A stretch of DNA of 60,000 nt from Botryllus schlosseri (taxonomy: Eukaryota). Numbering within the stretch: position 1 is the stretch's first letter; each line of letters starts with the position of its first letter. The position numbers were made by a program, and so were the translations under genes. The notes under the pieces were generated by a model, which was not told where the DNA came from, did no database searches, and was given only the letters and a program-made list of their open reading frames with translations. Location of the stretch: positions 5,148,001 through 5,208,000 of the forward strand of contig CM119371.1 of the NCBI GenBank assembly GCA_051294905.1, given 5' to 3'. This document shows, in pieces, positions 18,328 to 48,345 of the stretch.

Positions 18328-19476
18328 TCACAGTAATGCTTTTCCACACATGTCACATTTATACTTTTTGATGCCAGCATGCATATCCATATGTTCCTTG
18401 AGGCGACCCTTCACCGTAAATACTTTCGCACATACATCACAAATATGATTTTTGATGCCAGCATGCATATCCATATGATGCTTGAGGTTACCCGTCTGAG
18501 TGAATACTTTACCACATATAACACAGATATGATTATTGATGCCAGCATGCTTATCCATATGCAAATTGAGAGTACCCTTTCGAGTGAATACTTTACCACA
18601 TATAGCACATGCATGATTTTTGATTTCAGCATGCTTCTCCATATGATGCTTGAGGTTAACCTTCACTGTGAATGCTCTCCCACATATATCACAAACATGA
18701 TTTTTGATGCCAGCATGCATATCCATATGAACCTTGAGGCTGGCATTCTCAGTGAATGCTTTACCACTTACAGCACATGTATGATTTTTGATTCCAGCGT
18801 GCTTATCCATATGCAACTTGAGGGTACCCTTCTGAGTGAATGCTTTACCACATATACCACATATATGATTTTTGATGCCAGCATGCATATCCATATGACG
18901 CTTGAGATTATCCTTCTGAGTGAATGCTTTACCACATATAGCACATATATGATTTTTGATGCCAGCATGCATATCCATATGAAGCTTGAGATTATTCTTC
19001 TGAGTGAATGCTTTACTACATATAGCACATGTATGATTTTTGATTCCAGCATGCTTATCCATATGACGCTTGAGCGTGCCCTTCTCAGTGAATGCTTTCT
19101 CACATATATCACATACATGATTTTTGATGCCAGCATGCATATTCATATGAAGCTTGAGGTGACCCTTCCGAGTGAATGCTTTACCACATATAGCACACGT
19201 TTCATTTATGATGCCAGCATGCTTGTCCATATGCAACTTGAGGGTACACTTCTGCGTGAATGCTTTACCACATATAGTACATTTATGATTTTTGATGCCA
19301 GCATGCATATCTGTATGAAGCTTGAGGTGTCCCTTCTCAGTGAATGCTTTACCACAGACAGCACATATATGATTTTTGATGCCAGCATGAATATTCATAT
19401 GACGCTTGAGGGTATTCTTCCGAGTGAATGATTTACCACATACATCACATTCAACATTGTTGATGCCAGCATGCAT
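18328..19476 (-). CDS. Tandem C2H2 zinc-finger array (13 fingers, one with C>S, plus a truncated 14th); probably a last exon or pseudogenic remnant
   Basis: 382-aa ORF of 28-aa/84-bp repeats CxxCGKAFTxKxxLKxHMDxHAGIKNHx. A degenerate in-frame finger (KAFTGNSYLKHFIDMH) lies just upstream of the ATG. No effector domain was seen. Confidence 0.8.
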   Translation of the reverse strand: MHAGINNVECDVCGKSFTRKNTLKRHMNIHAGIKNHICAVCGKAFTEKGHLKLHTDMHAGIKNHKCTICGKAFTQKCTLKLHMDKHAGIINETCAICGKAFTRKGHLKLHMNMHAGIKNHVCDICEKAFTEKGTLKRHMDKHAGIKNHTCAICSKAFTQKNNLKLHMDMHAGIKNHICAICGKAFTQKDNLKRHMDMHAGIKNHICGICGKAFTQKGTLKLHMDKHAGIKNHTCAVSGKAFTENASLKVHMDMHAGIKNHVCDICGRAFTVKVNLKHHMEKHAEIKNHACAICGKVFTRKGTLNLHMDKHAGINNHICVICGKVFTQTGNLKHHMDMHAGIKNHICDVCAKVFTVKGRLKEHMDMHAGIKKYKCDMCGKALL

Positions 19477-20816
19477 ATCTATAAAATGCTTGAGGTAACT
19501 ATTCCCAGTAAATGCTTTCCAGTTTCCAATATATATCGAAATGGCGTTATTTCAAGTCATGAACAATAGTCAATACTGGATCCACAGATTGCTTTTCTTT
19601 ATGACACTAAAGAAAAGACCCCCAGATTTTCAGCAGTTCAGCATATAAACTTAGTTCAATTATAGTATGGCCACATCTGCAATGCATGAAAGTGTAGAAC
19701 TAATTTAAACAAGGATTATTATAAGATTGTAGACAGAGAAATCACGATACGGGGATAGAGTACAACATACAAACCTATCAATTACATGGAAATGACTGCA
19801 GCAATGAGAGTGTAAAAATCATTATAATACATTGTAATGTACCGGTAGTCTTATTGTTTCATTTTGTCGGACATCATCAATAGAACTATTAGATTGGTAC
19901 ATCAAGTTTCAATCATTTTAGTAACAAATCATTCATAACACGCGAAAAAAACACAACGACAGTAGCGCACTTCGGTGCATGTCTGCAAATGAATTAGAGA
20001 AATTTTCATAGAACCACAAAAAAGATATATCTGTGACCATGAACATTGAGCAGCTTCAATGAATATGCCTTGAAGTAGATTGCTCAGTAATAAAGTTCAC
20101 ATTAACAGTGCTACATTTCCTTTTATATAGGTTGAAAAGAAAAATATTCCTGCTAGTTTGTAGCTTGTCTTTCCTGTCAGAAGCACCGCGTCACCACAAC
20201 GCCTATGGTATGTTATAAGCTAGTCTGGATAAACATTACTGGACGATCAACAATCAAGATGGTCATTGACTCAGTGCATGATCAATTTACAACTGAATTT
20301 TTGACGGTGAATTGCGCCCAATTCATAGCCAACCATAGATATAAAATAAACATTCAGGTTTATGACAATTCATATCAGAAAATTACGTATCACTTTTCAT
20401 TGAACACAGTTTGAAACACGCCAATAACAAATGCATGACAACATGACCATCATTAATCACGGTTCCAAGTGACTACGTCAACATTTATGGCATTCATGAG
20501 TGGTTTAGGTTTATCGTTTTGTGGAAGCGTCCATGACCTTTAACCCGACCTTAATTTTACGCCACCACAGCTGCAAAACGAAACCCAATCCTACAATACC
20601 CTATCCTTAACCGAACATGAACAACTGGATAATTATAGTTATCTAATTACACTAATTAGAGCAACATGTTGGTACTACAATTCTAATCTAATTTCCGAAA
20701 TATGTCTGCGCTCTAATCGGCGTTGGGATGACTCGAGTCACGACTTGACTCGAGTCAGACTCTAGTCAACTTTTTCGTATGACTTGACTTGACTCAGCGC
20801 TTCAGAAATGTGGATT

Positions 20817-23330: not shown

Positions 23331-24276
23331 AGAAAGCAAGAAAGGTGATTCAGGTGATTCGTTTTACATTAAACAGAACTACTATACCTGTAACAAGGAA
23401 AACAAGACATTCAACTAGAATTAAAGTAACGAACCATTGCAAAAATTAGATTAGTATTGGATTGCTGGCATTTTGCTCTAATTAAACTGATGAAACAACC
23501 AGAACTATCTCGATGTCCAAGTCTGCTAACAGATATGGACATTTACCAGTTACACTCATTTTCTGTTCGGTCATAGGTCTGGTGATCAGGCAAAATCAAA
23601 CATCTGTATATCGTTAATGATCGATGGCTGTTACAACACAATGACAATGTTTAAAATCAAAATAATATTAGGGTGATTGCCGTTGAAGAATTTCAGAACA
23701 ACACAAAATTATTTTATAAATTCAATAAGAATGACTGAATATTTAAAAGCTTCAAAATTAAATTATATTCCACGTCACAAAGAAATACAAAAACATGAAG
23801 CTCAGTCTATAATAAATCAGAATTCAGTCCCATAAAATCAAGAATAGGAAATGTCTGTAAACACAGCTTAGTCGATTTCACACAACACGGATCTCTTGTA
23901 GCATTTTCAGGAATAGCATAAATTTAATTAGAATTAGAGCACATTAACATTTCACAAATTAGATTTTAATTATATAACTACCGTACCATTTCCCTCTAAT
24001 TTCTCTAATAACACAGCTGGTAATATCTAGTTGTCCAAGTCTGCTGTAGCGCTAATCAACATAAGGCTGTCACCCACTATCTCCATCTCCTGAGTAGTTG
24101 TTTGTAAGTCTCGCTATGAAATTATTTGCATTTCCACTTATCATTTCTACGGGCGTTATCTTGGCAGCATGAAAAATTCCAACCTAATTTTCAAATAGTA
24201 ATGACCCTCCGAATTAGACAGAAACATGATAAGGAAGTGCTTGCATTTTAAAAAGAGAAAATCACCACATAATAAC

Positions 24277-24849
24277 GGCCCTGTGGATATAAAGCTGTAT
24301 CAGCTGTATCACCCTGTGGATATAAAGCTCTATCAGAGGTATCACTCTACCTTTATGGGATCGGTGTCTTGTGTTCAAACAATTCTTGATTTTTTATTAT
24401 TATTTTTTTTCAATTACTTTACTTGGGATGCAAAATAGTCAGGTATCGGAACACAAGGGTATCGTCCTCTACAGTGATTATGCAAACATACAATGTCAGA
24501 CGTAAACTAGATCATCTCATCACCATCATTGGTTTATGAGCATTATCAGGACGCATTATAGCCAGGGCCGTAACAACACTTGGTCAGCCCCCCCCCCCCT
24601 AAAAAAGTTGGTCTTAGGCCCCCTATGGGGTGCTAAACCGACCCCCCAGGCTGTACGCTGTTTATCGCTACATATCATCTACATTGGGTGATATATGAGT
24701 GATACAGCTGCTGATACAGCTTTACCCACAGAGTGATACAGCTTTATATCCACAGGGTGATACAGCTGATACAGCTTTATACCCACTGAGTGATGCAGCT
24801 TTATATCCACAGGGTGATACAGCTGATACAGCTTTATATCCACAGGGCC
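24277..24849. mobile_element. Mutator/foldback-like MITE with tandem-repeat TIRs
   Basis: TIRs are built from GGCCCTGTGGATATAAAGCTGTATCAGCTGTATCA units; perfect 9-bp TSD CATAATAAC (24268-24276 and 24850-24858). Confidence 0.82.
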
Positions 24850-25998
24850 CATAATAACCGATTGCTTTACTTCCAACAAATTCGATCACCGATGTATGGC
24901 AGTAATAATATAACTCTTAATATCATATCAAGGAGTGTATGATTACAGTACCGTACTTGAAAATCATCTCTTACTACTCAACCTGAATTTTTGCAATTAC
25001 GGTAATGCGACATTCGAGTACGGTCAAGCAGCTCTATATGCTTCTAACACAAATCCTAATGCGAAATTAACCAAAAACATGAGACAAACATCAATACTTC
25101 CAGGGATGAAAGGTTTATACAACAAATTACTCAATTTGAAATTTTTAAAAAATTGCTATGCACATGCTGCAATACCTTCTTTGATATATTCCACACACAC
25201 TGGGAAATGTTCCTCATGATTACCAACAATCAATGTTCTCTATGAGCACGCCAACATTTATCGTTTTTACGTGAGATTCAAGTGTTTCTTATTTTCATCA
25301 CTTTTGTCTTCACCTCTTAATCGATACAATTGAGAGTCATTTGACCTGTGAAATGCAATGCACATTTTGAATGTGCGGAAACAATATATCATTTCCAATC
25401 GCCAAAACAAAAATGTGACAGTGTCAGAAATTTCATTTGCGTTCGCGTACTATATAGTCATGGTATTTTTTGGAACGCCTATTGGTCGTGATCATGGGGA
25501 TCACTTCCCAATATGTAAATCCGTACCGAAAAAGTGCTGCAGAATGTCAGATATAACCTTTTCGAAGATATATCTTTATCCAAACTCTATTACAGGCCGT
25601 TGTCAAGATATACATGCATTGAAAAAGCACCGTTCTTCGCCAGACTTGTACAAACTACTGGATTTTCAAATTGAGTAACCAAATTCGAATCATTCAATTT
25701 TAGACACGCTATAGAAAAAACTCTCGCAAATATAAAACACAACTATAGATTCAATCCCGAACGAATAGATCATCTTTATCTTATTAGAATCGGCTTTCTG
25801 CATGAACAATGAACACCGGTGCAAGTTTGAAATGGGATGGGTTTTGACCCTCCTCGAAAACCACCCCATAGCTGCTCAACTGTTACTAGTGATGATTCTG
25901 TGCTAGCAATGGCTGCAAGAACATCACCCAATAAAACACTGGCATCACCATTTACGTTAGATGACAACACGTTTTCTACTTATGATTCAAGTTTCAGT

Positions 25999-26111
25999 AT
26001 ATCGGCAGCTAATTTTCTTTTAAATGCACAACGAGAACTATAACTAGACGCTGTTCAAAATCATGAACTAGAATTATAACTAATTTGACATTAGAACTAC
26101 AACTAAGAGCT
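25999..26111 (+). repeat. Left copy of the 113-bp LINE target-site duplication
   Basis: ATATCGGCAGCT...AACTAAGAGCT is identical base for base to 31174-31286. Confidence 0.95.
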
Positions 26112-26323
26112 TTTCAGTGATTTTATTTCAAAGTGCATACACAAAAAATAAATTGTATCAGCTTTTAAGATGTTAATCTTATGGTTAAGCATGATGATAA
26201 GTGTGGGGTTCAACGTATAGAGTATATCATGGAATACATCAAGTTAGAAATGTTCAGGTTTTCCTTCAAGTAAGCTTATTCACAAGTATATTACGCTCAT
26301 ATATCATTTATATACAGACACTT

Positions 26324-29300
26324 TTACGTCAAATCGCGCGCGCTTGTGTCTTCCGTTCTTTTTTGCTCACGGGCCCGGTTTTCTCTGTTTGCGTTTATAC
26401 GTTTTCGGATGATTTCGGTTTGTGCTCCTATTTCTTCAGCATACTCATTTTGTATGTCTAGGGATATTTTCCATCTCCATATTTCGGTTTTGAGATCCAT
26501 GTATGCTGGTATTATCGTAGAGGCATGTGGCCCGTCATACGCGTTCGTTTTTATCTTCTTAGGCTCGGCATCGATGTGTGTTTGGAGTGCATCCTCCAGG
26601 TCATTTCTGATGGTATAAAATATTTTTTTGTAAGTTTCGCATTCTACATATAAGTGGTGTAGAGTCTCTTCGTCGTTCCTGCAAAGTTTGCATTTATTTT
26701 TTATCTTCTTGTTTTTGGTGCTTTCCCACCCAGCCGCCATTTTTCTTGATCCTGTAAAATAACTCTCGGTGTTAATTCTGTAGGATATGACTCTCTGGTT
26801 GTTGTTGACGAGTTCTTTCATGTTGTTCTCGTACAGCCATATCCTTTTCCAGTTCTTCATTTCTTCTCCCTTATTTGTTGCTGTCTGCCTGAGGAGTAAC
26901 GCATATACTTCTTTCTGGGCAAGCTCGTGTGCGTCTTCGTTTTCCCTCAGTATCGAGGTATATGCTTCTCTTTCTTTTTCCCAGCTTTCCGTTGGTTTGT
27001 ATCTGTGAGGACAGTTGTTATTGTATAACTTTGCATTTATACTTCTCACCTTTGTTGAGAGGTTATATACGGCCTCCGAGTGCCAGATCTCTTTAGGTTC
27101 GTCGAGCTGGGATAGTTCCTGCATCCTTTTGATTCTCCTCGTTTTCACCGCCGTGTCAATGTCTGGCATTCCAATTCCCCCTTCTTTTCTTGGTCTTTTC
27201 AGGGTGTTTCTGCTCTTCTGCTCTAGTTTCTCTGGGCTCCAGAGTAGATCGAATAAGAGTTTTTCCATTTCCTTCAAATATTCTTTACGCAACTGCTTAT
27301 TGGAATAAGTATATGTTACTTTGGTTATTATGAAAGCTTTTATGGCAGTAATTTTCCCCAGCCATGACAGTTTTTTGGATTTGATAAAGTTAGCCGATTT
27401 TCGAAGTCCTTGTATTATTTTTCCATAGTTTAAGTCTTCTTCTTGTTCTCCATGATGTATGCCCAGGATTTTTGCACTCGATCTTAGCATGTGCGCATGT
27501 GGCGAGCTTTGCAGGATACATCGTGATCTTGGGTTCAGTGCTAGGATTTCTGTCTTTTCTCTGTTTATTTCCTGCCCCGTCACCTTATATAGTTTGTCGT
27601 ATTCCTCTAGTATCTCATGTATTGAGCCTGTTGAGCTAATGTATAGGGTTACATCATCAGCAAATTGGTCCAGTTTATGGGTTATGCTTCCGATTCTTAT
27701 TCCTTTGATTTTCTCGTTTGTATCTATCCTGTTGGCTAGAGGGTCAGCACTTATGGCGTATAGTGTCATGCTGAGAGGGCATCCTTGACGAATCCCTCTC
27801 AGACATGTGACTTCCGCTGCTTTTAGTCCATTTACTTCCACTATTGCGATTGGGTTGTTATATATCTCTTTAATGGCGTTTAGTGTTTCGCGAGTGACTT
27901 GAAATTTTTCTAGCACTTTGATTAGCATACTGTGGTTCACTTTGTCAAAAGCTTTTTTAGCATCGATGGTCATTATGTATCCTTCTATAGGTTTATCGCG
28001 GTGATATCTCAGGACAGCTTCGATGTTATTGTGTATTACATCCATCTTCCTTCCCGGGATACCTGCTTTCTGCGAGGTACTTATCTTTTCTGATATTTCA
28101 TTGGTCAGTTTCTTGTTCAGGATTTTTGCCATGATTTTATAGTCAGTGTTGAGCAGGGAAATGGGACGCCAATTCTCCAATTTCCTTTTTTCTTTCCCTT
28201 TATGGATCAAAATAACTTTTGCCAACTTCCAGCTTTTTGGCATTTTTCCTAGTAGTATTGCATTATTTACTAGCTGTGTAAGTTTTCTGCCAATTGCTTT
28301 CCACATGGTGATGTAGAATTCTACAGTAAGACCATCAGTACCGGGTGATTTCTCTTTAGCCATAGATTTAAGTGTATCGTACACCTCTCCTCTCTCTATC
28401 GCTGCTGGGTGTTCTTTGTCCATTGTCTGTTCTTCTGCTTTGAACTTGTAGGTGGAGAGGTATAATTCTTGTCGTTCCTGGTTTGCTGTTCCACTTTGCG
28501 ACCATAGCTCTTCATAGAAGGATTTGATTTCTGCGGTGATGCTATTTGCATCGGTTGTTACTGTTCCGTCGGCCATCAACAGTTCCTTCAGTTCTGCCTG
28601 CTTTTTTCTGTTTTTTAGGTGTTCCCAGAACTGTTTTGTTTTACTCTGTTCTCCCTGTGGCACTCCTGGGATGGCAGTTAGTCTCAATTTGCCCATTGTT
28701 CTTTCGTAGCTTGTTTGAAAGCTTGCGTTTTTGTTGGTATACGCTGTGTATCTTTTGCTTATATTGGCTATCTTTTTCTTTGTTCCATCCCACCACTCTT
28801 GAATTGTATCATATTTTTCGATGTTATTTTCCTCATTGCAAATGAGGTTCGCTATGATATTTTGGTATGTTTTGTCGGACAGTAATTCTTTGCTGCATTT
28901 CCAACTTTTCCTGTCCCAAGAAGTTTCGGGTTCTATTCTGATGTTTAGCGTAGGGCTTATGTGGTCTGCGACCTCATTATTTTCATGCGTTGCATGCACT
29001 ATGTGTTCTAGAAGTTCTTTTGACGCATATATTCTGTCAATTCTTCTTCCACTTTTCTTCGTCACGTGGGTATATATCCTTTTATGCGGATACATATGTC
29101 TGAACGTGTCGATCAATTCTGCTTCTTCTATTATGTTTTTAAAGCGTTTATCGTTGCTGTTGGTCGTTGATAGTTGGTTGTTGGTGTCTTTTGGGTTTAT
29201 AACAAGGTTAAAGTCTCCCCCCATTATCGTTGGGATATCTATATTGTTAATTTCTTGCTCTAGTTTGGTTAAGAAGTCTCTTCTTAATTTTCTTGGAATT

Positions 29301-29647
29301 GGTGAATCCCCAGATGGAGCATATACGTTCAGGATGGTAAGTGGGCACTGCGCTATTTGCATAGTAATGCTTTGTAGTCTATTTTCAATCAGGATAGAAT
29401 GATCAATAATTTTACCTCCATATTCCTTCTTTATCATGATGGTCGTGCCATCATATTGTCTCTTATAGTTTGTAGAATTCATGTATGCTATATATCCAAT
29501 TTTCTCCGCCCATTCCTTAGTGGATTCATGGTCCATTTTGTGGGTCTCCTGTATGAGAAGTATATCCATTTTTGATTTTAGGATGTATTCTTCCAAGTCA
29601 TCTAGTCTTTGTGTTATGCCATTTACGTTGATCGTTGCTACTTTCAT
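26324..29647 (-). CDS. LINE ORF2: apurinic-like endonuclease, reverse transcriptase and C-terminal Cys/His zinc motif
   Basis: 1107 aa. APE motifs MKVATINVNG, LIQETH, NVYAPS, GGDFN, RIDRIY, ADH. RT motifs KSPGTDG, NWRPISLLNTDYKI, DAKKAFD, GIRQGCPLS, QFADD. C-terminal CKLC...ETLHHLYVEC. Confidence 0.95.
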   Translation of the reverse strand: MKVATINVNGITQRLDDLEEYILKSKMDILLIQETHKMDHESTKEWAEKIGYIAYMNSTNYKRQYDGTTIMIKKEYGGKIIDHSILIENRLQSITMQIAQCPLTILNVYAPSGDSPIPRKLRRDFLTKLEQEINNIDIPTIMGGDFNLVINPKDTNNQLSTTNSNDKRFKNIIEEAELIDTFRHMYPHKRIYTHVTKKSGRRIDRIYASKELLEHIVHATHENNEVADHISPTLNIRIEPETSWDRKSWKCSKELLSDKTYQNIIANLICNEENNIEKYDTIQEWWDGTKKKIANISKRYTAYTNKNASFQTSYERTMGKLRLTAIPGVPQGEQSKTKQFWEHLKNRKKQAELKELLMADGTVTTDANSITAEIKSFYEELWSQSGTANQERQELYLSTYKFKAEEQTMDKEHPAAIERGEVYDTLKSMAKEKSPGTDGLTVEFYITMWKAIGRKLTQLVNNAILLGKMPKSWKLAKVILIHKGKEKRKLENWRPISLLNTDYKIMAKILNKKLTNEISEKISTSQKAGIPGRKMDVIHNNIEAVLRYHRDKPIEGYIMTIDAKKAFDKVNHSMLIKVLEKFQVTRETLNAIKEIYNNPIAIVEVNGLKAAEVTCLRGIRQGCPLSMTLYAISADPLANRIDTNEKIKGIRIGSITHKLDQFADDVTLYISSTGSIHEILEEYDKLYKVTGQEINREKTEILALNPRSRCILQSSPHAHMLRSSAKILGIHHGEQEEDLNYGKIIQGLRKSANFIKSKKLSWLGKITAIKAFIITKVTYTYSNKQLRKEYLKEMEKLLFDLLWSPEKLEQKSRNTLKRPRKEGGIGMPDIDTAVKTRRIKRMQELSQLDEPKEIWHSEAVYNLSTKVRSINAKLYNNNCPHRYKPTESWEKEREAYTSILRENEDAHELAQKEVYALLLRQTATNKGEEMKNWKRIWLYENNMKELVNNNQRVISYRINTESYFTGSRKMAAGWESTKNKKIKNKCKLCRNDEETLHHLYVECETYKKIFYTIRNDLEDALQTHIDAEPKKIKTNAYDGPHASTIIPAYMDLKTEIWRWKISLDIQNEYAEEIGAQTEIIRKRINANRENRAREQKRTEDTSARDLT

Positions 29648-30957
29648 TTTTCAGTATGGTATGATATGGTGCTTGTGTCAGACGTGAGGTTAGGATTATC
29701 TGACTCATCACTGTCGCTGTGGTCATGTTTTCTTCTTTTCTCCGATTCTGTATTCTCACTGCTGTTTGAGTCTCTGAAACGTTTGTTTGGTTCAGAGATC
29801 AGCGAGTCGGGGTCAATTGCTGTCTCGTTCAGTGGATCCAGTGGTTCATTTTCTGCTAATTCGTAGTTCGGGGTTGTTCCTTGTTTTTCTTCGTTTAGCG
29901 GCGATGTGGATGTATCTTGTATATTTTCATTTATTGTCTCACGGCGTCTGGTTTGAGCGCCTATTTTTGCTGCAAACATGGTTTTGTTAGATTCAGCGTT
30001 CCTGATCTTGACTTCTAAGTTGCTGTTTTTTTTTCGATTCTTGATTATTGGCTTGTCCATTATTTTGGGTTTGGGCGTATTTGGTGATGATTCTGTCCTC
30101 TTTGGGTTCTGCTTATTTTCGTACCACATGTTGTTATCGTTTTCGTCATCTGTTCTGTTATTTTCTTCTTCATGTGGGATGTCGCTGATTGCCTGAAATC
30201 TGTTCCGGAGTTCAATGGCTTGGGGTACTGTTTCTGGACATTTTGCTTGGGTATGTCCCTTTTTGTTGCATTTGGTACATTTCTCGTATTTGCTTGGGCA
30301 GTCTTTTATGTAGTGTTCTTCCGAGTTACATAGGTAGCATTTCTTGTTGTAAATATCGTCCGCCGTTTGGATTGGGCATGTGTATCCATCTATGTTTATC
30401 GCTCTTGGCATATTCTGTTTGCAGAAGTCCTCGACCCAGGCATTGGTAAAGCCATTGTATAGTCCTGTGTTTTTTCGGTATACTCTAGTGGTGCTGACTA
30501 CGGTGCCAATTCCTAGTCTGGATATTTCCTTCCTCATTGTATCGGCTTTAGATTCCGTTGGAATTCCTCGTATTATGAGGTGAGTTGCTGGGAGTCTTGG
30601 AAGTTCGATCTTTATAGTCTCGAATCCAGTTGCTCTCTCTGTTTGGTCTAACTCCTTGTATACCAAGTCTCTTGTATTCTGGTCTCCTTTTTGTTCTTTA
30701 AATGTAAGTATCCAGGTACCTTTTCGGATTTCGTACAGCGCTTCCATGTCTTTGCGGTACGCTTTCGTTGTTGGGTTTTCATTGATTTGGTCCCATATTT
30801 CGTCAAAAGTTAGCTCCCCAGGGCCTTTCACGAAGAGTGAGCGCGGTCTTCGGTGGCTGAAAACCGGCTTTGGTTTTCCGGCTGCTGCCGCCGCATAGTT
30901 GCCATTTTGCTGTCCGGTATGTTCATCTTGTATATCCATATTTGCTGCTTCGCCCAT
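29644..30957 (-). CDS. LINE ORF1, gag-like nucleic-acid-binding protein with two CCHC zinc knuckles
   Basis: CYLCNSEEHYIKDC and CTKCNKKGHTQAKC, an N-terminal YAAAAA motif and a low-complexity C-terminus. The ORF-track start at 30969 is TTG; the first ATG is at 30957. Confidence 0.9.
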   Translation of the reverse strand: MGEAANMDIQDEHTGQQNGNYAAAAAGKPKPVFSHRRPRSLFVKGPGELTFDEIWDQINENPTTKAYRKDMEALYEIRKGTWILTFKEQKGDQNTRDLVYKELDQTERATGFETIKIELPRLPATHLIIRGIPTESKADTMRKEISRLGIGTVVSTTRVYRKNTGLYNGFTNAWVEDFCKQNMPRAINIDGYTCPIQTADDIYNKKCYLCNSEEHYIKDCPSKYEKCTKCNKKGHTQAKCPETVPQAIELRNRFQAISDIPHEEENNRTDDENDNNMWYENKQNPKRTESSPNTPKPKIMDKPIIKNRKKNSNLEVKIRNAESNKTMFAAKIGAQTRRRETINENIQDTSTSPLNEEKQGTTPNYELAENEPLDPLNETAIDPDSLISEPNKRFRDSNSSENTESEKRRKHDHSDSDESDNPNLTSDTSTISYHTEK

Positions 30958-31173
30958 TTCTATATCCAATTTATATCCCCGTATGATTTGTAAATCCGAT
31001 ACCGTATATATCCAGTGGTACGTTTATATCCAAAGTCACAACTTGAATATACGAAACAACGTACCACCTTAACGCTCTCTTCTCAAGTCAAACAATCAGA
31101 TCCACGGACCATCAGTTATATATATATATATGTATATAGTTATATAGACTTAACGCCTTAACACAATCAATCC

Positions 31174-31286
31174 ATATCGGCAGCTAATTTTCTTTTAAAT
31201 GCACAACGAGAACTATAACTAGACGCTGTTCAAAATCATGAACTAGAATTATAACTAATTTGACATTAGAACTACAACTAAGAGCT
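31174..31286 (+). repeat. Right copy of the 113-bp LINE target-site duplication
   Basis: Identical to 25999-26111. Confidence 0.95.
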
Positions 31287-32789
31287 AAACTGAACAGTGA
31301 ATATGAAAAACAGTACACCCGAGGTCTGGCATACGCAATCATTGGGCATACCTTATGGAGTCATAGCGACACCTTAGGGTTGTACGGCGGCTAAAAAGTA
31401 GAAAGCAGAAATGCCTGACAGGAAATATTCTTTCTGATATTTTTGTTTCGTGTGACAGTCATATGGAGTTATTCTTTTGATGCACAGTTGACTATAGGCA
31501 CCAATATTCTATAGTGTGGTGCAATGAGATCGATTTTCGTATTTTATGTTACTGGCCAATCATTCGGGCCATAGAAGACTTGCTGATTGGCGCAGGAGTT
31601 CGCCATGTTAGTAAAGGTTGGAGACCACTGATCTTATATCAGTTTGACAATTTATTAAATATATTATTCCACATCTTGCATGGTTATTAACATTAGCTTC
31701 GGTATGGTCGACGAAATAAAAACCTATCGTCTGTTTTGTTGCCTCTCTGTGATTCGTTTACGGCTCAATGCCCTCGGCCTCAATATGGATGGGGGACTCC
31801 CCTCTGTCTGAGTAAATATTAAATATATTTGATTCTTGCTCAATGCGCACTGCTCAGTAAAAGTATAGATTACTACTCTCCGTAAGTTAGTAATAATTCA
31901 GATTACTGTTCTTATAAAGAAGAAGCTACACACTTTATGAAATAACCTTTTACCAGTGTCAAAGACTAGTATAATTATCCCACTTGTATTTATCAATTTG
32001 CGAATTATCATCAAATCTCTGGACTAGACATCGTCACATCGATATGGCAGATTTTACCGTACGTCCTCACCGCGTATTATCAGTTCCGCTGTTATAATTC
32101 CATCTGTTTTACTTGAGGACCTGAAGTTGAGGTTCTGGGCAGACTTCCAAAAATTACCAATCTGGTTAGTTGACGGTTTTTCAGTAGTTCAAGTTTCAGT
32201 TGCATATTTTGAAAATTGCTACTTCTAGTTCCAGCGTTGTGCATTTAAAAAGATATTATTTACCCAAGCGCTATATAGAAAACATGTGTCGTAATTTCAC
32301 AGGAATCGTGATATCCGTGTTCTGTTGTGTGATGTTCTTGCAGCCAGCCAATGGCAATAATGGCCCATTGCTAGCTCGGACTCGGAGTCGTCGCTATACT
32401 AACAGACTTGTATAGTTGTATGGATTCTGTGTCCTGTGCTCACACAATTCCCAGCCAGCGGCTTACTGTTATATTAGGCAAAACTTACCGAGATTCCAGT
32501 CGGGCTATAACAGTAACAGAGATGTAGGCTACCCCGTGCTTCTAGTTCCAGTTCTAGTTGTCTAGTCTTCTAGTCAAGTCTTTGAACTACAAGTATGAAT
32601 CAAGTTTGTTATGCATATTTTTAGACAATAAAACATTTTTATCAAGTAGCCAGTTAAATGTTACCAAACAAGTTATTATTGATCAACCTTATTAGACCAT
32701 ATCAGTTTCAGTATCTGTTAATGCACGACATTTCATTTTGCAGGCTGATTTGTGTTTGATTTCACGATAATGTAAGATGAAGTTGACAA

Positions 32790-35700
32790 TCGCCAGACTC
32801 GTGTGTGATGGTTCTACTGGGAAACGATACAAAGAGGTTGATTTCTTGGCAAAGGGGGGTTTGTGAAATGCTGTGAAATCACGGAAGTCCAAACAAAAGA
32901 AGATTTCGCTTGTAAAATTGTGCCAAAGGTGAGTTAAGTGTGCTGACGCAAGTAATCTATGTGACTATGTTGTATGCACCAATGCCTTCTTTTGTTAACT
33001 GTGTTGAAAACAAGGATTTGGTCTAAAGCTTGCAAGTTGTCATTCTCAAAGCCAATCTAACACAATGAAGCAGACCTTGGGCACTCTTGTGCCTGCAATG
33101 TCGTCAGATTCTACAATTCAGCTTCTAGTCCCAGTTCAAGACTAAGTCCGCCTCGGGCCACATATTGAACAGCTCATGTAGAATAACATTTTGATTAGCT
33201 TTAGTAACTATCTTCATCTCAAGTCTGGATTAAAGTGTAATAGTATTTGTTGTTTCCGTCTCTTTTGCCAACATGCCATATTACACCACATTTGAATACA
33301 AATCGAATACAAATTTCTTGCAACTATAACTAAAACTAACTCAAGACTAAAGACTAGAACTGCTCCCTTTTCGCAACACACAACTAGAGATGGGAACTGC
33401 TCACACACACTGCTCACTAGAACTACTATCTTAAACAAATACTTGCCACTAGAACTAGAACTACTCACTTTATGAAATGTGCAACTAGAACTACTCTAAA
33501 TACCTGTAGTCAGTTGACCGTCAACTAAATAGACTGGTAATTTTTACAACTCTAAATTTCAGGCACTGCTCTGTATGAGCATAAGAAAGACAAAATGTGT
33601 CGAGAGATCAGTCTCCATCACAGTTTGAATCAAAAACACGACGTTGGATTTCACGGATTTTTCCAAGACAAGGATTCTATCTTCATTGTTCTTGAGTTGT
33701 GCAAAAGAAGGGTACCGGTAAGCGATACAACTGTCATGTACGTCTAACTGTGATGGTCGCAATTGCATCAGCTTTGTGAGGTTCATTACCTGACAGACTT
33801 GGAAAACTAGATAATTCTGGTTTTCTTATTAGACTAATTATAGCTAAATGCTTGTATGTTGGTATTTTAATATAATTTCTGGTTTACCTGAAAATATTAC
33901 TGGAAAACTGTATACCGTAGTGGTAAACAAGCCAACCTTAGTGTAAATACAGTTGTCATTCTCTTGCTTATGAAAACTCTTATTTGATATCAAGTAAATT
34001 TGATATTTTTTGCATTTCTTTTACGAATTGAATGATTTAAATTATAATCTGATTTCGATAGCTTGTGTAGCTATAATTTTAATTTTAATCTAGTTTGCCA
34101 AAGCTGAATAATTCCTCTTTACACAACTGTGATCAGAGAGCTGGCACAACTATTCGAGTACTCAAATCTGAATCTGAATTCTAATGATTTGAATGGAGAA
34201 GCGAGAGATGATTTTTTGGAGTACTGAGCTTGTACGTTCCTAGTCACAAGAGGTAAAGATGATTAAAAATAAACTGAACTCTGCTGAATGTAGAGTAAAG
34301 TGGGTAAATTTACCAATGAAATTATTATACTTTCAATAGTATTTCTCACTGTCGATATCTGAAAACCTCGACTGGTCATATCGCAGAACACGGAACATGT
34401 GTACAAAGCTACTCACACATTTAAAAAGCTCATCCAGTCAAAGACTTTTCATTGTATTCAGCGAGATTGTCAACTTGATGCTGTAATGGAAGCTTCTTTT
34501 AGATATTAGTCTACCAACAAATAATATTATTGATTTCATTCTAGCAATCCAATTGTCTTTGTATTTTATTGTCAGTCGCTAATGGAAGTTTACAAAAGAA
34601 GGCGCGTCATCACAGAACCAGAGACTGGCTATTACATGCTACAGATTCTGCTTGCAGTGGTTTATCTTCACGATTCTGAGATCATTCACACGGATATCAA
34701 GGTAACGTTGCTTGCAGTAGTATGTTGCACTGGGTCAGAGGGGATCAATACCAATGGACTTCTTGATTTTCACAGCACTCAAGACATGGGCAACTAGTTA
34801 TTACAAATTATACTGATTAGAGTGAATGCCTGCAATCTTAATTCTAAGCCAATTATGGTTTTCCTGCAATTGATACAGGTGAAGTGTATACGGTAGTGAG
34901 AAACAAGCCAAGCTTGTTATACAGACATTTGCCATTCTTGTGTTTATGAGAATGAATAGTGATCTAATATTATTCGAACTTCATTCAATGTCCAAGGTCT
35001 GGCGAATTCAGCAATTATATTTCAAATCATTTTGAAAAATCTGTGCAGCCATCATCTAATTATGGTATAATTTGGAGAAAAACTGTTTGGAAATAACTGT
35101 GTAGATATCATTATAAAATACTGTAACATGGGAAAAACTTTGTATCTGTAATGCTAATCCTAGCCCAATTTAGAAAAGCTGAAATTTTTTTAATTTTCCA
35201 AATAGTTTTATCCTGATACTTGAATTCCTTCCTTACTGTTTCAAATCTAGATTCTTATTATACTTTGAAATCCACAAATCCTGATTCCAAAAAATATTTT
35301 TAAATGTGTGAGTTACTATTTGTGATTTGATTGCCATTTGTGATTTTATCACCAGAATGTTGGCAAGCAACCCGTCTCAGTGACTGTTTGTAACTGAATT
35401 GCTGGGGAGCGAGTATTTCAACCATTCAACGGCAACATTCCTCAGAAAGTGCCCAAAAGCTGCTTGACCATGGCGCCTAGAATTTCGGAACGCTAACTAC
35501 AGCAAAGGCGTCCTCTGCAGAGTTTCAACAGTGAGTTTTTCGTAGGTCTCGGCGAAATCATGTTCCCGATTAATTCGATTCTGAATCAAGTATTACGTTT
35601 TGGGTCGCGTACTCGAGTCTCATTCATGATAACTAGAGCCCGATCGATATCGTATTTTTGAGCCAATACCGATAAGTAGAACCTTCACCGATAACCCCGA

Positions 35701-38700
35701 AATATTCCACCGACATCGAAATAATATGGCAACTAGCTAAGACATATTTCCAAACCTTCCGGGCATTTATTTGAACTTGCGGTCATTGCTATACTTGGAT
35801 ATAAAATAAACTAATAAGGATGCATCTGAACGCCTGTAAGCAGAGTCGGTCTGTAGCGTTAGTGCCTCTACTTTTATGGACTACTCAAGTGGGTTTTGCC
35901 ACCACACCCCGAACCTTCACCATTATTAGTACTGATGACAACTAGAACTACTCACTTCTTAAAATCCGCAACTGAAGCCAGTATCTGAATTTCAGGCATT
36001 GTTTGTGAAGTAGCATGAGAAAGACGAATGTGTCAAGATATCGGTCTCCGTCACAGTTTGAATCACAAGCACGTCGTTGGATTTCACGGATTGTTCCAAG
36101 ACAAAGATTTTGTCTACGTCGTTCTTGAGTAGTGCAGAAGAAGGGTAAAAGTATTTCCTCACTATAAACGTAATGCAACGCTAACTGCGCCGGTCGCAAA
36201 TGCATTAAATCTGTCATGTTCATTACCAGCAGAATTGGATAACCAGATAATTATTTTTCTATAATGTATTAGGCTAAATATGGCAAAGTACTTGTCATGT
36301 AATTCCAATCTAATTAGTCAACTAATTCTACATATGTAGTGTGAAACGAGTCACGATCGGTGAACTATTCTCTTGCTTATGATAATCAAGTCCAATTTGA
36401 TATGAACTGAACTTGATTTCTTTTCCCAACTAGGTAATTAAATTCTAATCTAATTTGGATGGGTGTTCAATATATTTCTAATCTACTTTGAATAATTTGA
36501 TCATTTTCTAGTGACACAACTGTGATCACTAGTGCTGGGCACAGTGATTTGATGACTCAAATCTGAATCGAGTATCAATTCAAATAATTTGAGTCGAGTA
36601 GTAGGAAATGATTGTTTCGAGTGCTGACAATATACGCTTCATGCCGCAAAATGGAAAAATCATATTAACTATGAGCTGAATTGAACAATTGAGAATTATA
36701 TTTCTCACTGTGAAAAGCTGTGAACCTTGATTGGTCGTATCGCAGTATACGAAACATGTAATACAAAGCTATGCACGTTGCTGAAAATGACATGTCTGTG
36801 AAGTTGTGAGCAACCGAAAGCATTGTCCCATAGTGTGATGAAATAGTAATGGTAAAAATAGTGCAAAATAATCTTTATAATATGACTAGAATAGGTATTA
36901 TATTCTTTGTGGTGTTGCTATGAAGTTAACATGAGTGACTCAAACTCATTACTCGATTCAGAATCAAATCACTCAGGTACTCTATTTTAGCCAGCCAGAT
37001 TTATTTCACGTTCAGTATCAAAAAGCAACTATTAAATAAAGTTTGGAAGGTTCACCGGTCTGTGAAAACTGTCTTCAAATTTGACCGTCTCTCTAACTCA
37101 GAAAGGTTGAGAACCACTGATTTAGATGATGTGTCCAACAAATATTATTGTTTCTCTCATTCCAGCGATCCAATTACCTTTTATTTTTGTTGTCAGTCGC
37201 TGATGAAAGTTTACAAAAGAAGATGCGTCATCACAGAACCAGAGACTCGTTATCACACGCAACGGATTCTGCTTGGTGTTTTTTGTCGTCACGATTGTAA
37301 AATCATTCACAGAGATATCAAGGTAACATTGTGTGCAATAGTGCATTCGTAAATAATCTTCGAAAATTATGTCAGAACCAGAGCCGACCGATGATTGGTT
37401 TGTCAATTTGGGGATAAAACTATGTACATTATGTACCATCAACGTAAAATGATTGATGGCGCTACAAGCTCTCTAAAGTGAACTCGTACAAACTACTGGA
37501 TGTTCAACATGCACAACAAGAATTAGAACTGCTCACTTTTCCAAATTCTCTAGTTGAACCAACGACCATTGAAAATCCGTAACTAACTAACTAATACACA
37601 ACTCGCTAATGATTGTTTGGTTAATAAATTACAAATGAGCTGAGAAATATCGGAGATAGAATTGGCATCTCAAATTGATGGGGTTTTTAGTTTAAAACGG
37701 GAGTGGTTTCGACCCACAATACTCAGCCCAGCCTGTACCATTGTTTGGCACGATGACTCAGAGCTAGGGCTGTCATGAGTAAACTCAAGTCAAACTCGAG
37801 TCGTGCTTATTTGGTGACTCGTCTTGACTCGAGTCATATGACTGTCACTGTAACTTCGAAGAATAGTGAAGTCGCCACATGATTGGTATTCCCTATATCA
37901 GTCTTGAAAATAGGGCCAGAAACTGTAAGACTGATGAAAATAACGATAGTATGAATGCAAGTGATTCTATATCACTCGAGGAGAGTTGGACAAAGTGAAT
38001 TGAAACGGAGTGTAATGATAACTGGACATTGAACATAATGACTTGGACTCGAGTCAAAACGCCATATATCAGACTACACTTTTTACTATCTGACTCGGAC
38101 TCGGACTTGAGTCGGTGGTGAATTATAAATGAATCGACTTGACTCGAGTCAAAACTTTAAAAGTGAGATTGACATGTGACTCGGAACCACTCACTTTTCA
38201 AGTCCGCATCTATAACTTGAACTACTTAAAAACAGTAGGTATTGACCATCAAGTAATTGGATTGGTAGTTTGTACAAGTCTGTTTACTTTTGTTTAAATA
38301 ATTGCGAAATTTGTACTGACAGCTTGGCAACCTGTTTCTGAACAATAACATGGAGGCGAAAATGATTTTGGCCTGGATACCAAATCAACTTTATGAGGCC
38401 CACACAACCATATTACCCCTGTAGATCTCAGAAAGAAGGGACGCAGTTTCGAAGGAAACAACGAGTCACTGGGTTGTGTTTTGTGCGTGTAATGCAACAT
38501 TAAACTGGGACGTCATAAAAGGAGGTTATATATGTCTTAAAGATAGCGTTCTGCAAAATCGAGTACCTAAGTGATTTGGTTATTAATCGAGTCGAATATT
38601 TGAGTATCTCTCATGACGTCGTAAATTCCAAATATGCACATTTTATGCGATCGCCATGCAGGGTTGGTAACCAAGTCACAAGGTCCCGAGTCGCAAGGCA

Positions 38701-42409: not shown

Positions 42410-44321
42410 AAGGTCTGCCCAATGATTGGGTATGCGAGACCTCAGGACTCAGGTGTTCTGCTTTTCATATTCACTGCTCAGTGCTCAGTTTAGTTTAGTT
42501 GTTAGTTGTAGGTCGAATTTTCAAGTAGTTCTAATTCTAGTTCGTGATTTTGAATAGTTTATAGTTATAGTTAGGGAAAATTAGCTGCCGATAAACTGAA
42601 ACTTGAATCAGAAGTCGGAAGTAGAAAACGTATTGTCATCTAACGTAAATTGTGATGCCAGTGTTTTATTGGGTGATGTTCTTGCAACTAATAACAATTA
42701 CAAGCTCAGAATCATCACTAGTAACGGTTGAGCAGCTAAGGGGTGGTTTTCGATGGTCAAAACCCATCCCATTTCAAACTTGCACTGATGTTCATTGTTC
42801 ATGCGGAAAGCCGATTCTAATAAGATAAATATGAAGTCGATTCAAGATTGAATCTATACTTGTGATTCATAGTTGCGAAGGCAGTTAGTTCTAGTCTTTT
42901 CTAGCGTGTCTAAAAGTGAGTAATTCGAGTTTAGTTTACTCAATTTGAAAATTCAGTAGTTTGTACAAGTAGGCTATGACTGAGAACGGTGCTTTTTCCA
43001 TGCATATGTCTATCTTGAAAAGGGCCTGCAATAGAGTTTGGATAAATATATATCTCCGAAAAGGTTATCTGACATTCTGCAGCACTTGTTCGGTACGCAT
43101 TTACACATTGGAAAGTGATCCCCATGATCACCACCAATCGGCGTTCCCAAAAACTCCATGACCACGTACGCGAGAGTAAGCGAATGAAATATCTGACACT
43201 GTCACATTTTTGTTTTGGTGATCGGCCAGAGTGGAATTGGTGGCAACGTCACACACAACTTTTCCTGTGATTACTTGATTATTCTACGCAAGAAACCCTT
43301 CTGTCACGCGCAACTTATTGCTGAAAACAACCACTTTTTCCATTCTGGGCGTACGGAAATGATGTATTGTTTGTGCACATTCAAAAGGGGCATTGTTTTT
43401 CACTAGCCAAATGCAACTCAATTGTCATTCGATTAAGAGAGATATCCAAGAAATGAAAATAGGGAGCACTTGAATATCGCGCAAAAACCATAAATGTTGA
43501 CATGCTCAATTGCTCATGGGGAACATTGATTGTTGGTAATCATGGGGAACATTTTCCAGTGTGCGAAGTATACCAAAGAAGGTATTGCAGCATGTGCATA
43601 AGTTCGCTAATTTTAACAATCTTCAGACTGATTATTTTCGTATAAAGCTTGCCTCCCTGGAAGTATTGATGTTTGTCTGATGTTTTTGGTTATGGTCACA
43701 TTATGATTTGTGAGAGCTGCTTGTATATGGTGTCTTATCGTTGGTTCCTATATGTTCATATTTTCACTGTTGAAAATTTCACTAGTGCCGATGGGTACAA
43801 TGGTTACATTACTGTATTCGAATTTAGTATTAATTGCAATAATTCAAGTAGAGTAGTGAGAGATGATTTTTTCAAGTACGGTACTGTAATATAATCTTAC
43901 ACTCCTTGATAAGATACTAAGAGTTATATTCTTACTGCCATACATCGGTGATCGGATTTGTTGGAAGTAAAGCAAATTTCTCTTATTAAAATACAAACTC
44001 TTTCTTGTCCTGTTTCAATCTTTTTGTATTTTTGTGAAAAACATTCGATAATTTTGACGCTGTTGTATATGCACAGTTGATTTTGCGCACCAGTATTCTA
44101 TAGTAATGCATCAGTTGTGCAATGTGATGGATTTTGGTTTCCGTAATTTCGAAAATTTGTAGTTTGCTGAAGGCCTGCAGATTATCGTATGGGCTTGCCT
44201 AGTTATCGTAGTTAGGAAAGGCCAAGAACTACTGCTAAAACAGTTATAGCTTTCACAATGCCTTGCCGTTTGATTTGATAAGTGGGTGGTGGAAGTTTTT
44301 AATATTGACCGAGGAGGTGTG

Positions 44322-45550: not shown

Positions 45551-48345
45551 GGAGGTGTGTCTTAAAAAGTTGAAGAACTACTGTTCTAGACAATATATAT
45601 TCGGTATACTGCCAACGTTCCTGCTGGTATTACAGTGTTATAATAGTTGGGCTTTGTAAAGTAGACAGACTTTTGGGGTTGTTTGAAAATCAATTTTGTT
45701 TTCAAATCTTACTGGCTAGTTGATGAATATGCCAAGTTTGTTAAGCGAAAACTAATATGGTGGAAAATTATTGATTTTTAACAACAATCAAAAATTTCAT
45801 TGAAATTGTATCGGCTCCCACATGGAATTGTTAGGTTGTCTACAAAAATATTGAAAGATTTATATTCATCAACTCCAACCCATAGAAGTATCAGGGTACG
45901 AAATGTTGGATTATGAAAAATAATACTCTTTCCTATAGGACATTTCATCTTTAAAACTGGATTGAACGGGTTCATGAGCCTGTATCATTGCACAGTTCCA
46001 GTCTTGCGGAGTTAACTACGCCTTGTGAAACCTAAAACGATATTTGGGTCCCGTGATTCTAATTTTTTGCAAGCTCCAAAGATGATCTGAAAAGCGCTAC
46101 AATAGTAATTGCTAGGGCTGGGTAGTGTCCTAGTGGGCATCAGGTTTTAATGAATTGATTGGGACAATAAGGGATTGTTTTTTTCGGAGTTTCGAAATCA
46201 TATGATCCTCGCCACTAAGATGTAACTTGTCAAATCAGAATTCGAGTTTCGATGCTATTTTCTTCTGCGAAAGGATTGAAAACATGAATTGTTGTCAAAA
46301 GTTGAATGAAATGGTTGTGGTCTAAAAACACCAAGCTATCTTTATTGTGATATAAAACTGGCATTATGCACTTCGTGATCGCGTAAATGGTACATATCTG
46401 AACTTGACACATCTTTCGTATTGTTATGTCGTCACAACGAAGGATACTCAAATCCCCAACTTGACTCGAAGCCTAATACTCGATTTATATCTACTGATTA
46501 CGCATGGGAGAACTCATGCGGGCACCACGTTAAAAGGTCTAAAATTAGAATTAAAATTGTTGAAACCATATTGAATGGTTCCGGGAATTCAAAAGGTCAT
46601 ATACATAGCATTTCATTAACTATATTCATAAATATGGTAAAATGCCATGCAAAATTCTTCCATCTCGTTTTGATTGCAGAAATTCAAAATGAAATGAGGT
46701 CTATAGAAAGGGAACCAATTTGAAAGCTAGGATTTATCAGGCAGTGTCCACTCTGTGTGCAGTATGTGCTAAAATCTTCTAGTTTAGTCCTGCCGTCAAT
46801 TGTAGCCAGTGTTGGGTTCAATTCACCACCTTTTCTATCCACGACAATATGAATATCACCAATAAGTGTTTCCGGTGAACATGTTAAAATTTATCGTGTT
46901 CGTAATGGGTTAAGGGCAGACTTGGACAACTAGAAAGCTTTCAGCTTTTTTAAAGTTAGCTAGCTAGCTACACATATTTTAAATTTCCGAATTTGATTAG
47001 ACTTAGACTTACCGATACTGAATTTGTGAAAACTTGGTAGTTAAATCAATTTAATCTCGTATCAAATCATAGAGTTCATTCCAATACTTATGGAAATGTG
47101 TGTGCTGTACAGCAAGCTTGACTCGTTTTACATGGTACAGTTCTCTATCATTTTCAATAAAATCAGACAACAAATAAGAAACAAAATGAGAGCATATTCA
47201 CATTTCACAGTCACCATCGAGTCATGTCAGGTCAATCGATTTTTGAAGGTGACTCGAGTCAAGTCAAGTCAAGTCACGAGTCAATTCACGATTCAAGTCA
47301 AATTGAATTTTCGAAGTATGAGTGATGATGAAAAGTCATTACAGTTTGCTGACTGTGTAAAATCCAGCTTAATTGACCAAAATTACCATTTATCTTGAAT
47401 CTAATAACGAATATAAAGTTAACTATACATGCAAAAAGGCGTTGTATCATTCACCAATACGCAGAACTTCTACATGAGTAACTGAATAGCTACATGCTAT
47501 ACAGTCTGTTATTATCTGCCAAAATGGCGAATCGAATACGAAGCCTCAGGATGTTGAAACAAATTGCTATGGTACAATACACTACTCAGCTACATGTCCG
47601 TGAGAATTTGAAAGCATAAACTATATTCACTCAATTTAAATTATACAAGAGAGTTGGTAAAGGTGAGCACTGCATAGTGTAAGCACTTGATCCGTCTAAC
47701 AAACAGAGATGCGTCCCTATTAGATCAGTGGTTCTCAATCTTTTTGGCTTCGCGTATCCATTTTCAGATCGCAACCGACCCCCGTGGGCCCCTCATGCAT
47801 ATGCATCTGTGGTGCCTTTCCTGTCGGCAAATCAGTTCAATTAGCTTGAAATTAATTTCAACTTGGAGCCTTCAAGGCGAGACGGTGGCATTTACGGATT
47901 TCATAGGAAATCTGCAAAGATCAACGACAGGACTGAGCATGGTGACCCTGATCTTGAGAATTGGCTGCAATTAGCTCATGTGTAGAAAAATTCTCATTAA
48001 GTAGTAGAGTTGTTTATGAATAATACCCTGAATGATGAATATCATGTGACATCAACAACTGTTATTGGTATTGTAATTAATCATGTTTCATAAAAGTCCG
48101 TTGCGTACAGCTGCTTGTCTGCATCTTCGCCATTTCGGACATGCCCGTGAAAAGTCGAGCATGCTAGCATTAGACATGCATTCATTTCGATAAGTGAGGC
48201 TTAAGTCGTGAGATGGTAATGCCACTCAGATTTGGGTAGTGGTCGTAAACGTTGAAGAACCACTGGTCTCAAAAAGATTGCCAAACACACACCTCTGTCG
48301 GCTAGTGCTATCGGAGCTGGTGGTTAACGCGACCAAGGCAATGAT

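Follow-up and report, generated by a model that had tools for sequence, protein, structure and literature searches.

The window analyzed here is a stretch of 60,000 nucleotides of the Botryllus schlosseri genome (GenBank assembly GCA_051294905.1, contig CM119371.1, positions 5,148,001 to 5,208,000 of the forward strand), which corresponds to C1:5148001-5208000 in the searched assembly G000 (495.5 Mb, 219 contigs). It harbors an intact long interspersed nuclear element (LINE), a retrotransposon without long terminal repeats (non-LTR), that is bracketed by two perfect copies of a 113-bp target-site duplication (TSD). The element consists of two open reading frames (ORFs) between two untranslated regions (UTRs); ORF2 combines an apurinic/apyrimidinic-type endonuclease (APE) with a reverse transcriptase (RT). 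The element, the flanking repeats and an inverted paralog of the target in the same window are located as follows, with positions counted from the first letter of the window.

26112 to 31173, minus strand: full-length non-LTR retrotransposon of 5062 bp, probably of the L1/Tx1 group, with ends set by 12 other genomic 3' ends and two other 5' ends.
30958 to 31173, minus strand: 5' UTR of 216 nt that contains (TA)n near 31109-31146, flagged there as a simple repeat, and begins with two G's that are missing from the copy on contig C4.
29644 to 30957, minus strand: ORF1, 437 aa, in which two CCHC zinc knuckles lie at about aa 205-243 (nt 30229-30345; Pfam zf-CCHC, E 1e-6).
26324 to 29647, minus strand: ORF2, 1107 aa, with the APE endonuclease, the RT and a putative C-terminal Cys/His motif.
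26112 to 26323, minus strand: 3' UTR ending ...GAAATAAAATCACTGAAA, without poly(A), as delimited by genomic comparison of 3' ends.
25999 to 26111, no strand assigned: TSD copy of 113 bp adjoining the LINE 3' end, identical to 31174-31286; in the paralogs it runs on from the left flank.
31174 to 31286, no strand assigned: TSD copy of 113 bp adjoining the LINE 5' end, identical to 25999-26111; in the paralogs it runs into the right flank.
42488 to 42601, minus strand: inverted paralog of the target, about 83% identical, which holds the 113-bp stretch once and thus serves as an empty-site analogue (self-alignment of the window; L029 in the paralog alignment).

A repeat search over positions 24000-33500 returned the direct repeat 25999-26111/31174-31286 (113 nt each, 100% identical, spacing 5175 bp), the second longest direct repeat being a tandem repeat of 57 nt. 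The bases that border the two copies are unlike on both sides (25998 t versus 31173 c; 26112 t versus 31287 a), and the repeat is therefore exactly 113 bp long. A perfect repeat of this length is far beyond chance. The ends of the element were defined by comparison with its relatives in the genome. The last 289 nt of the LINE have 13 genome matches, 12 of which share the end ...AAAATCACTGAAA (also written ...ATCACTGAAA) and then pass directly into unrelated flank; this fixes the true 3' end at position 26112, with no poly(A) tail behind it. For the first 300 nt, the genome contains three matches, namely the window copy itself, C4:11101991-11107050 and C11:6121868-6126928. Position 31173 lies two G's beyond the 5' start common to the other full-length copies, the copy on C4 beginning two bases later. 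The 113-bp repeats adjoin these canonical ends to the nucleotide. Between the repeats, strand asymmetry is strong across all 5062 bp (AT skew -0.2 to -0.4), and both ORF1 (30957..29644) and ORF2 (29647..26324) are open on the minus strand. An earlier note, made from the sequence of the window alone, had described a full-length LINE with both reading frames open inside a perfect 113-bp repeat; the repeat, the ends and the ORFs were all verified. The stop codon of ORF1 and the start codon of ORF2 overlap as ATGA (29644-29647, minus strand), an arrangement that suggests termination-reinitiation coupling. RNA folding of the 3' UTR gave no extra stability over shuffled sequences (z -0.5), and a tRNA scan of 24000-33500 found none.

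The origin of the repeated 113 bp was established from paralogs of the insertion site. The left flank (25398-26017) aligns with 84% identity to the inverted in-window paralog at 43222-42576, while the repeat with the right flank (31211-31295, 31295-31354 and 31346-31722) matches 42572-42488, 42476-42410 and 41942-41552, respectively, in the same inverted orientation; the paralog therefore holds the 113 bp once. The stretch has 24 further genome matches with 72-98% identity, 16 of them on C1. All ten sequences in the paralog alignment carry it once, joined to the left flank, and at least five of the ten run on into the same right flank; on C17, a match of the left flank with the repeat and a match of the repeat with the right flank overlap on a single copy of about 105 bp. 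Judged by these alignments, the 113 bp is host target DNA rather than an LTR, in agreement with the view taken earlier from the in-window paralog alone, to which C17 and other paralogs can now be added.

The insertion is very recent, since the two TSD copies show no differences between them and the LINE is identical to its C4 counterpart at 5060 of 5060 aligned positions. The copy on C11 is 99.3% identical, with 31 mismatches and three gaps in the BLAST alignment. Each of the three full-length copies (window, C4 and C11) has both ORFs open, and two of the copies are identical; the family, which is small, is therefore apparently active. Both the youth of the insertion and the possible activity of the family had been surmised in the earlier note, and both surmises stand. 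For a read-level check, we used the Logan contigs of runs X1, X4, X6 and X14. Contigs of other samples contain variant copies of the LINE, for instance in X14 one with 12 other letters in 1521 nt. In X6, which is guessed to be an RNA run although none of the runs is recorded as RNA, a 5011-nt contig extends over 26110-31108, nearly the whole LINE, with two other letters and one gap, and depth on the unique flanks is zero; this contig may be a full-length transcript, which, with the RNA nature of X6 a guess, is no proof of expression.

TSDs were then determined at other insertions, which comprise copies of the LINE itself and elements that share its 3' tail. The tail sites were collected with a 25-nt tail pattern allowing at most two mismatches, which gave 29 sites (L047-L075), 28 of them distinct, versus 0 for the reversed control. 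Short TSDs were resolved at the following four insertions.

C4, full-length and sequence-identical copy: TSD AAGACTGA(A), 8-9 bp, with a boundary ambiguous by 1 nt.
C7, 5'-truncated copy: TSD TGTAGTATTG, 10 bp.
L066 (G000:C4:18296190-18299214), an insert of 844 bp that has just its last ~30 nt in common with the LINE: TSD 14 bp.
L070 (G000:C9:14584327-14587351), an insert of 1064 bp that has just its last ~30 nt in common with the LINE: TSD 12 bp.

A BLAST comparison of 500 bp upstream with 500 bp downstream found a flanking direct repeat longer than 14 bp in none of nine other copies. No TSD was definable at two young copies, the one on C11 and a further one on C4 (L005), or at the older, decayed copies L006-L013. 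Two relaxed candidates at L053 and L067 (12 nt with one mismatch each) were discarded as being at chance level, with about 0.5 expected over the 29 sites. Taken together, these sequences indicate that the 113-bp duplication is a one-off event and not a property of the family. With TSDs of 113 bp and 8-9 bp at identical sister copies, one and the same element can give both outcomes, and the distance between the two breaks is not fixed by the element.

Two side observations concern these insertions. L066 and L070 share the tail ...GAAATAAAATCACTGAA[AG] and are candidate non-autonomous partners mobilized through the common 3' tail. The copies L001 (G000:C4:11101991, minus strand) and L005 (G000:C4:11269007, plus strand) are different insertions that both have AGACTGA directly after the tail and then diverge; at L001, AGACTGA is also present upstream, as the TSD. 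A 7-nt 3' transduction that carried these bases from L001 to L005 may explain this, as may a common target preference.

The two breaks that would account for the window insertion can be placed as follows.

31286 to 31287, plus strand: putative first-strand (priming) nick, ...AAGAGCT^AAACTGAAC, placed by the junction of the LINE 3' end with the repeat, and fitting the AG preference described below.
25998 to 25999, minus strand: putative second-strand break, ...GCCGATAT^ACTGAAAC (...GATAT^), 113 nt from the first nick, placed by the repeat boundary.

We propose, with a probability of roughly 85%, that the window carries a recent insertion of an L1-like LINE by target-primed reverse transcription (TPRT), with one sporadic distant second break and a 113-bp fill-in duplication. 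In this scheme, the full-length element would have entered non-coding DNA of a C2H2 zinc-finger cluster, where its endonuclease would nick the plus strand at 31286|31287 (empty site ...GAGCT^AAACTG), and the 3'-OH of the nick would prime synthesis of complementary DNA (cDNA) at the 3' end of the RNA (...CACUGAAA). The cDNA would reach the capped 5' end of the RNA and thereby acquire two extra G's; L1 copies gain extra 5' G's from capped RNA. The opposite strand would break 113 nt away, versus about 10 nt at the other insertions, and the fill-in of two 113-nt single-stranded overhangs would yield the perfect duplication. The distant break itself would be sporadic, either a cut of the endonuclease at an unusual place or a nick made by the host. 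The proposal builds on the observed structure of the insertion, the single-copy target, the youth of the insertion and the short duplications elsewhere; from these, we infer the order and strand of the nicks and the sporadic nature of the distant break.

The position of the first nick accords with the other members of the family. The flank at the 3' end starts with AG in 14 of the 28 distinct tail sites, versus a background of 0.055 (P 5e-11), and, where the TSD is known, the AG belongs to it. The bias suggests that priming, or the first nick, favors ...CT^ in the primer strand. The corresponding flank in the window is AGCTC, which fits the preference of the family, and the window target thus looks like a typical first-nick site.

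Several points weigh against the proposed sporadic break and its evidential basis. The sample is small, with short TSDs resolved at just four other insertions. The junctions are covered by Logan contigs, not raw reads, and these contigs break at the repeat. A 4255-nt contig of X1 (26949-31203) reaches from ORF2 across the 5' UTR and covers the first 30 nt of the repeat copy at 31174, which is one letter under the 31-letter bridging rule; moreover, it is a mosaic of copies that has C11 alleles at 14 of the 14 listed variant places. Among the contigs listed, none bridges 26111|26112, those from the 3' end stopping at 26110-26111, where the family copies diverge. Finally, both breaks lie next to a short host motif that recurs at the end of the element.

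25992 to 25998, minus strand: host heptamer ACTGAAA directly outside the duplication, equal to the 3'-terminal heptamer of the LINE (26112-26118); TTTCAGT is found here in 4 of 10 paralogs.
31289 to 31294, plus strand: host hexamer ACTGAA, 2 nt past the first nick and the inverted partner of 25992-25998; found in the paralogs as AAACTGAAC.

The second break thus falls directly 5' of ACTGAAA, and the first nick 2 nt 5' of the inverted ACTGAA. In the orientation of the element, the empty site reads G-TTCAGT-TT-[113 bp]-ACTGAA-AC, and according to the paralog alignment both motifs are ancestral host sequence. The post hoc chance of such a coincidence is about 1e-3 per boundary (a hexamer within three offsets), which hints that the position of the distant break was not random. 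A search of the window for the inverted hexamer pair gave 0 matches, because the LINE interrupts the site.

This coincidence suggests an alternative in which the second break of full-length insertions was positioned by a motif: a target copy of the 3'-terminal heptamer of the LINE would place the cut, being read by the end of the RNA or cDNA or by the nuclease, and TSD length would reflect how far the nearest heptamer lies from the first nick (113 versus 8-9 bp). In the window, the sequence following the break (^ACTGAAA) matches the LINE end at 7 of 7 positions, and the first nick lies beside the inverted hexamer. The heptamer is infrequent: counting both strands, the 60 kb of the window contain it 18 times (1.5e-4 per position and strand). 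In the identical copy on C4, the TSD is immediately followed by ACTAAAG, which agrees at 7 of 7 positions with the 3' end of a sister subfamily (...ATCACTAAAG) that accounts for 8 of the 29 tail sites; however, the boundary of that TSD is ambiguous by 1 nt. In three of the five insertions with a defined TSD (C7, L066 and L070), no such heptamer follows the duplication. Furthermore, the heptamer statistics are post hoc, and no strand-consistent mechanism could be derived, because on the cut strand the host heptamer and the RNA are of the same sense. We therefore regard positioning by the motif as improbable. If true, second-strand cleavage in an APE-type LINE would be guided by sequence, possibly by the end of the RNA or cDNA, and the heptamer coincidence provides a concrete, testable hypothesis. 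A variant in which the first nick occurred at the heptamer, with the primer fully complementary to the RNA end, was set aside, since it demands 113 nt of DNA-templated synthesis followed by a template jump and is thus less parsimonious.

Another explanation is an assembly artefact, in which a haplotype merge or mis-join made the second copy of the 113 bp. The dependence of the junction check on assembled contigs leaves some room for it, as does the multi-copy host sequence around the repeat, with 24 other genome matches of the 113 bp and very high contig depth at 25488-25975. However, both junctions coincide with the canonical family ends to the nucleotide, which a mis-join would not produce, and the X1 contig joins the 5' end of the LINE to the repeat. 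An allelic contig, nearly identical and with the site empty, is absent from the assembly; for either flank, the best of the other matches is 84-89% identical. A joint that skips the LINE, as expected for an empty allele, was not seen among the contigs listed, although contigs cannot show absence. Because both junctions fall on the canonical LINE ends, we consider an artefact very unlikely.

The possibility that the second-strand cut of this family is routinely placed about 110 bp from the first had been raised in the earlier note, together with the remark that ordinary short TSDs at other copies would speak for a single event. This proposal had a model in R9 of bdelloid rotifers, reportedly described by Gladyshev & Arkhipova in 2009 (Gene 448:145). 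R9 is said to leave a TSD of about 126 bp, long TSDs being the rule, and to be a single-ORF element specific for ribosomal DNA with a restriction-like endonuclease. The window element resembles R9 in being a non-LTR element with an exceptionally long TSD. In its favor, a fixed long distance has just the window insertion. The ordinary short TSDs are what was measured elsewhere: 8-9 bp at the identical full-length C4 copy, 10 bp on C7, 12 bp at L070 and 14 bp at L066, with none of nine other copies flanked by a repeat longer than 14 bp. In addition, the ORF2 nuclease is an N-terminal APE and not of the restriction-like type of the R2/R9 group, and the window LINE differs further from R9 in its two ORFs, its varying sites and the exceptional status of its long TSD. 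Judged by their sequences, the family-wide reading is refuted for the copies in the assembly, and it has very little to recommend it for the window insertion.

A pre-existing tandem duplication of the 113 bp, or a Campbell-type homologous integration of a circle made of the LINE and one 113-bp copy, would also yield direct repeats around the LINE, but both are hardly credible: none of the ten paralogs carries a tandem duplication, an insertion exactly at its joint without a TSD of its own is improbable, a circle of precisely the LINE and the target stretch has no evident source, and the two extra 5' G's fit cDNA made from capped RNA, as in L1 copies.

In ORF2, Pfam detects Exo_endo_phos at aa 4-225 (nt 28973-29638; E 7.3e-16) and RVT_1 at aa 487-729 (nt 27461-28189; E 6.8e-32), both above the cut-off; the zf-RVT match at aa 926-1008 (nt 26624-26872; E 2.7e-4, 22 bits) is under the curated cut-off of 27.5 bits, and the translation contains a C-x2-C...H-x4-C pattern near aa 985-1005. 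The best solved-structure match of ORF2 is human L1 ORF2p (E 3e-76, 260 bits, aa 345-835), versus E 7e-18 for R2 proteins, and its nuclease part matches L1 endonuclease structures with E 1e-12 to 2e-14. For ORF1, the matches in PDB are solely nucleocapsid-type knuckles. Pfam found no RNA recognition motif (RRM) in ORF1, and a single-sequence fold was unusable (mean predicted local distance difference test score 38, predicted template modeling score 0.25). A search of 5.8 billion proteins returned 219 matches at E <= 1e-10, and, among the matches listed, the closest two were 50% and 40% identical and the others at most 33%. The names attached to these relatives are sparse: the clusters of ten matches gave just 'exonuclease III', and ESM Atlas gave just unnamed RVT_1/Exo_endo_phos clusters.

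Like other APE-bearing LINEs, the element combines an RT and an N-terminal APE in one ORF, has no terminal repeats of its own, shows variable 5' truncation (with copies cut short at 4536, after correction for the TSD, and at 4048 and 2790 of the element) and is flanked by host TSDs. A poly(A) or A-rich 3' tail is typical of the L1 clade; 12 of the 13 copies are without a tail. Site-specific Tx1-type elements insert into one specific repeated target, and site-specific members of Tx1 were reportedly treated by Kojima & Fujiwara in 2004; by contrast, apart from the AG preference, the flanks show no relation to one another at the 28 distinct tail sites, the sites of the window LINE differing from copy to copy. 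From the R2/R9 group it is set apart by two ORFs, an N-terminal APE nuclease and a target in the non-coding DNA of a zinc-finger cluster. Thus, its domains and open ORFs bear out the earlier description as an intact APE- and RT-bearing LINE, for which L1/Tx1 group is a reasonable label based on its sequence, L1 and Tx1 not being separable. According to the part of the literature consulted, ORF1 variants of 'Type I' with an RRM and CCHC motifs in non-mammalian animals are in line with the Tx1 clade (PMC5203782). The window LINE shares with these L1/Tx1 elements the two ORFs, the CCHC motif of ORF1 and, in ORF2, an N-terminal APE followed by an RT and a candidate Cys/His motif, and differs from them in its 3' end, ...CACTGAAA instead of poly(A), and in having no RRM found by Pfam.

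Long TSDs have precedents among human L1 insertions in cell culture (Gilbert 2002/2005 and Symer 2002, cited through PMC5223499). In the portions of this source that we consulted, L1 TSDs are usually 5-30 bp long, up to ~10% of the events recovered from HeLa cells have TSDs longer than 100 bp, and in cells deficient in nucleotide excision repair the latter account for 57-91% of L1 events, for which a distant unrelated nick was proposed (PMC5223499). In HeLa cells, Gilbert et al. found extremely long TSDs mainly with 5'-truncated inserts, according to the part of that paper available to us (PMC2912911). The human events resemble the window insertion in that an APE- and RT-bearing LINE uses TPRT and leaves mostly short TSDs, with a minority longer than 100 bp attributed to a distant second nick, again as far as these sources were seen. 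By contrast, the window insertion is natural, genomic, full-length and non-mammalian, and its LINE has no poly(A) tail and carries CCHC knuckles in ORF1. A single 113-bp TSD is therefore rare but has precedents, and the mechanism behind it is a known one. Of all steps in LINE integration, the second-strand break is understood least, and a natural full-length insertion of near-zero age with a 113-bp TSD, next to an identical sister copy with one of 8-9 bp, provides a clean example of both outcomes from one element. Moreover, an apparently active family with three intact copies, two of them identical, and with variants in other samples could serve to study this break. In other respects, the window insertion is that of an ordinary young transposon into non-coding DNA.

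The target of the LINE is non-coding DNA between inverted C2H2 zinc-finger ORFs of a locally amplified gene cluster. The two ORFs lie at 18328-19551 (minus strand) and 48328-49335 (plus strand), with zf-C2H2 matches of E 4e-71 and 5e-69, respectively. Inverted paralogy extends over 24862-26106/43975-42502, and the paralogs on C1 range from about 4.05 to 6.4 Mb. The opposed orientation of the ORFs and the inverted paralogy imply an inverted segmental duplication inside the zinc-finger cluster. Elsewhere in the window, an ORF fragment at 36939-37352 (plus strand) has a weak Pkinase match (E 6e-6, under the cut-off). Beside the target, contig depth at 25488-25975 is 15-40 times that of the neighboring LINE (1517 versus 43 in X1), with numerous contig breaks at 25639-25670 and near 25887-25927; this segment looks like a high-copy short repeat, perhaps a miniature inverted-repeat transposable element or a short interspersed nuclear element. 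A 66-nt inverted repeat, 76% complementary, connects 25910-25975 with 32281-32346. Further upstream, 24270-24856 is composed of 33-nt and 57-nt tandem units, and its halves are mutually inverted, with 66-nt arms that are 92% complementary and 455 nt apart.

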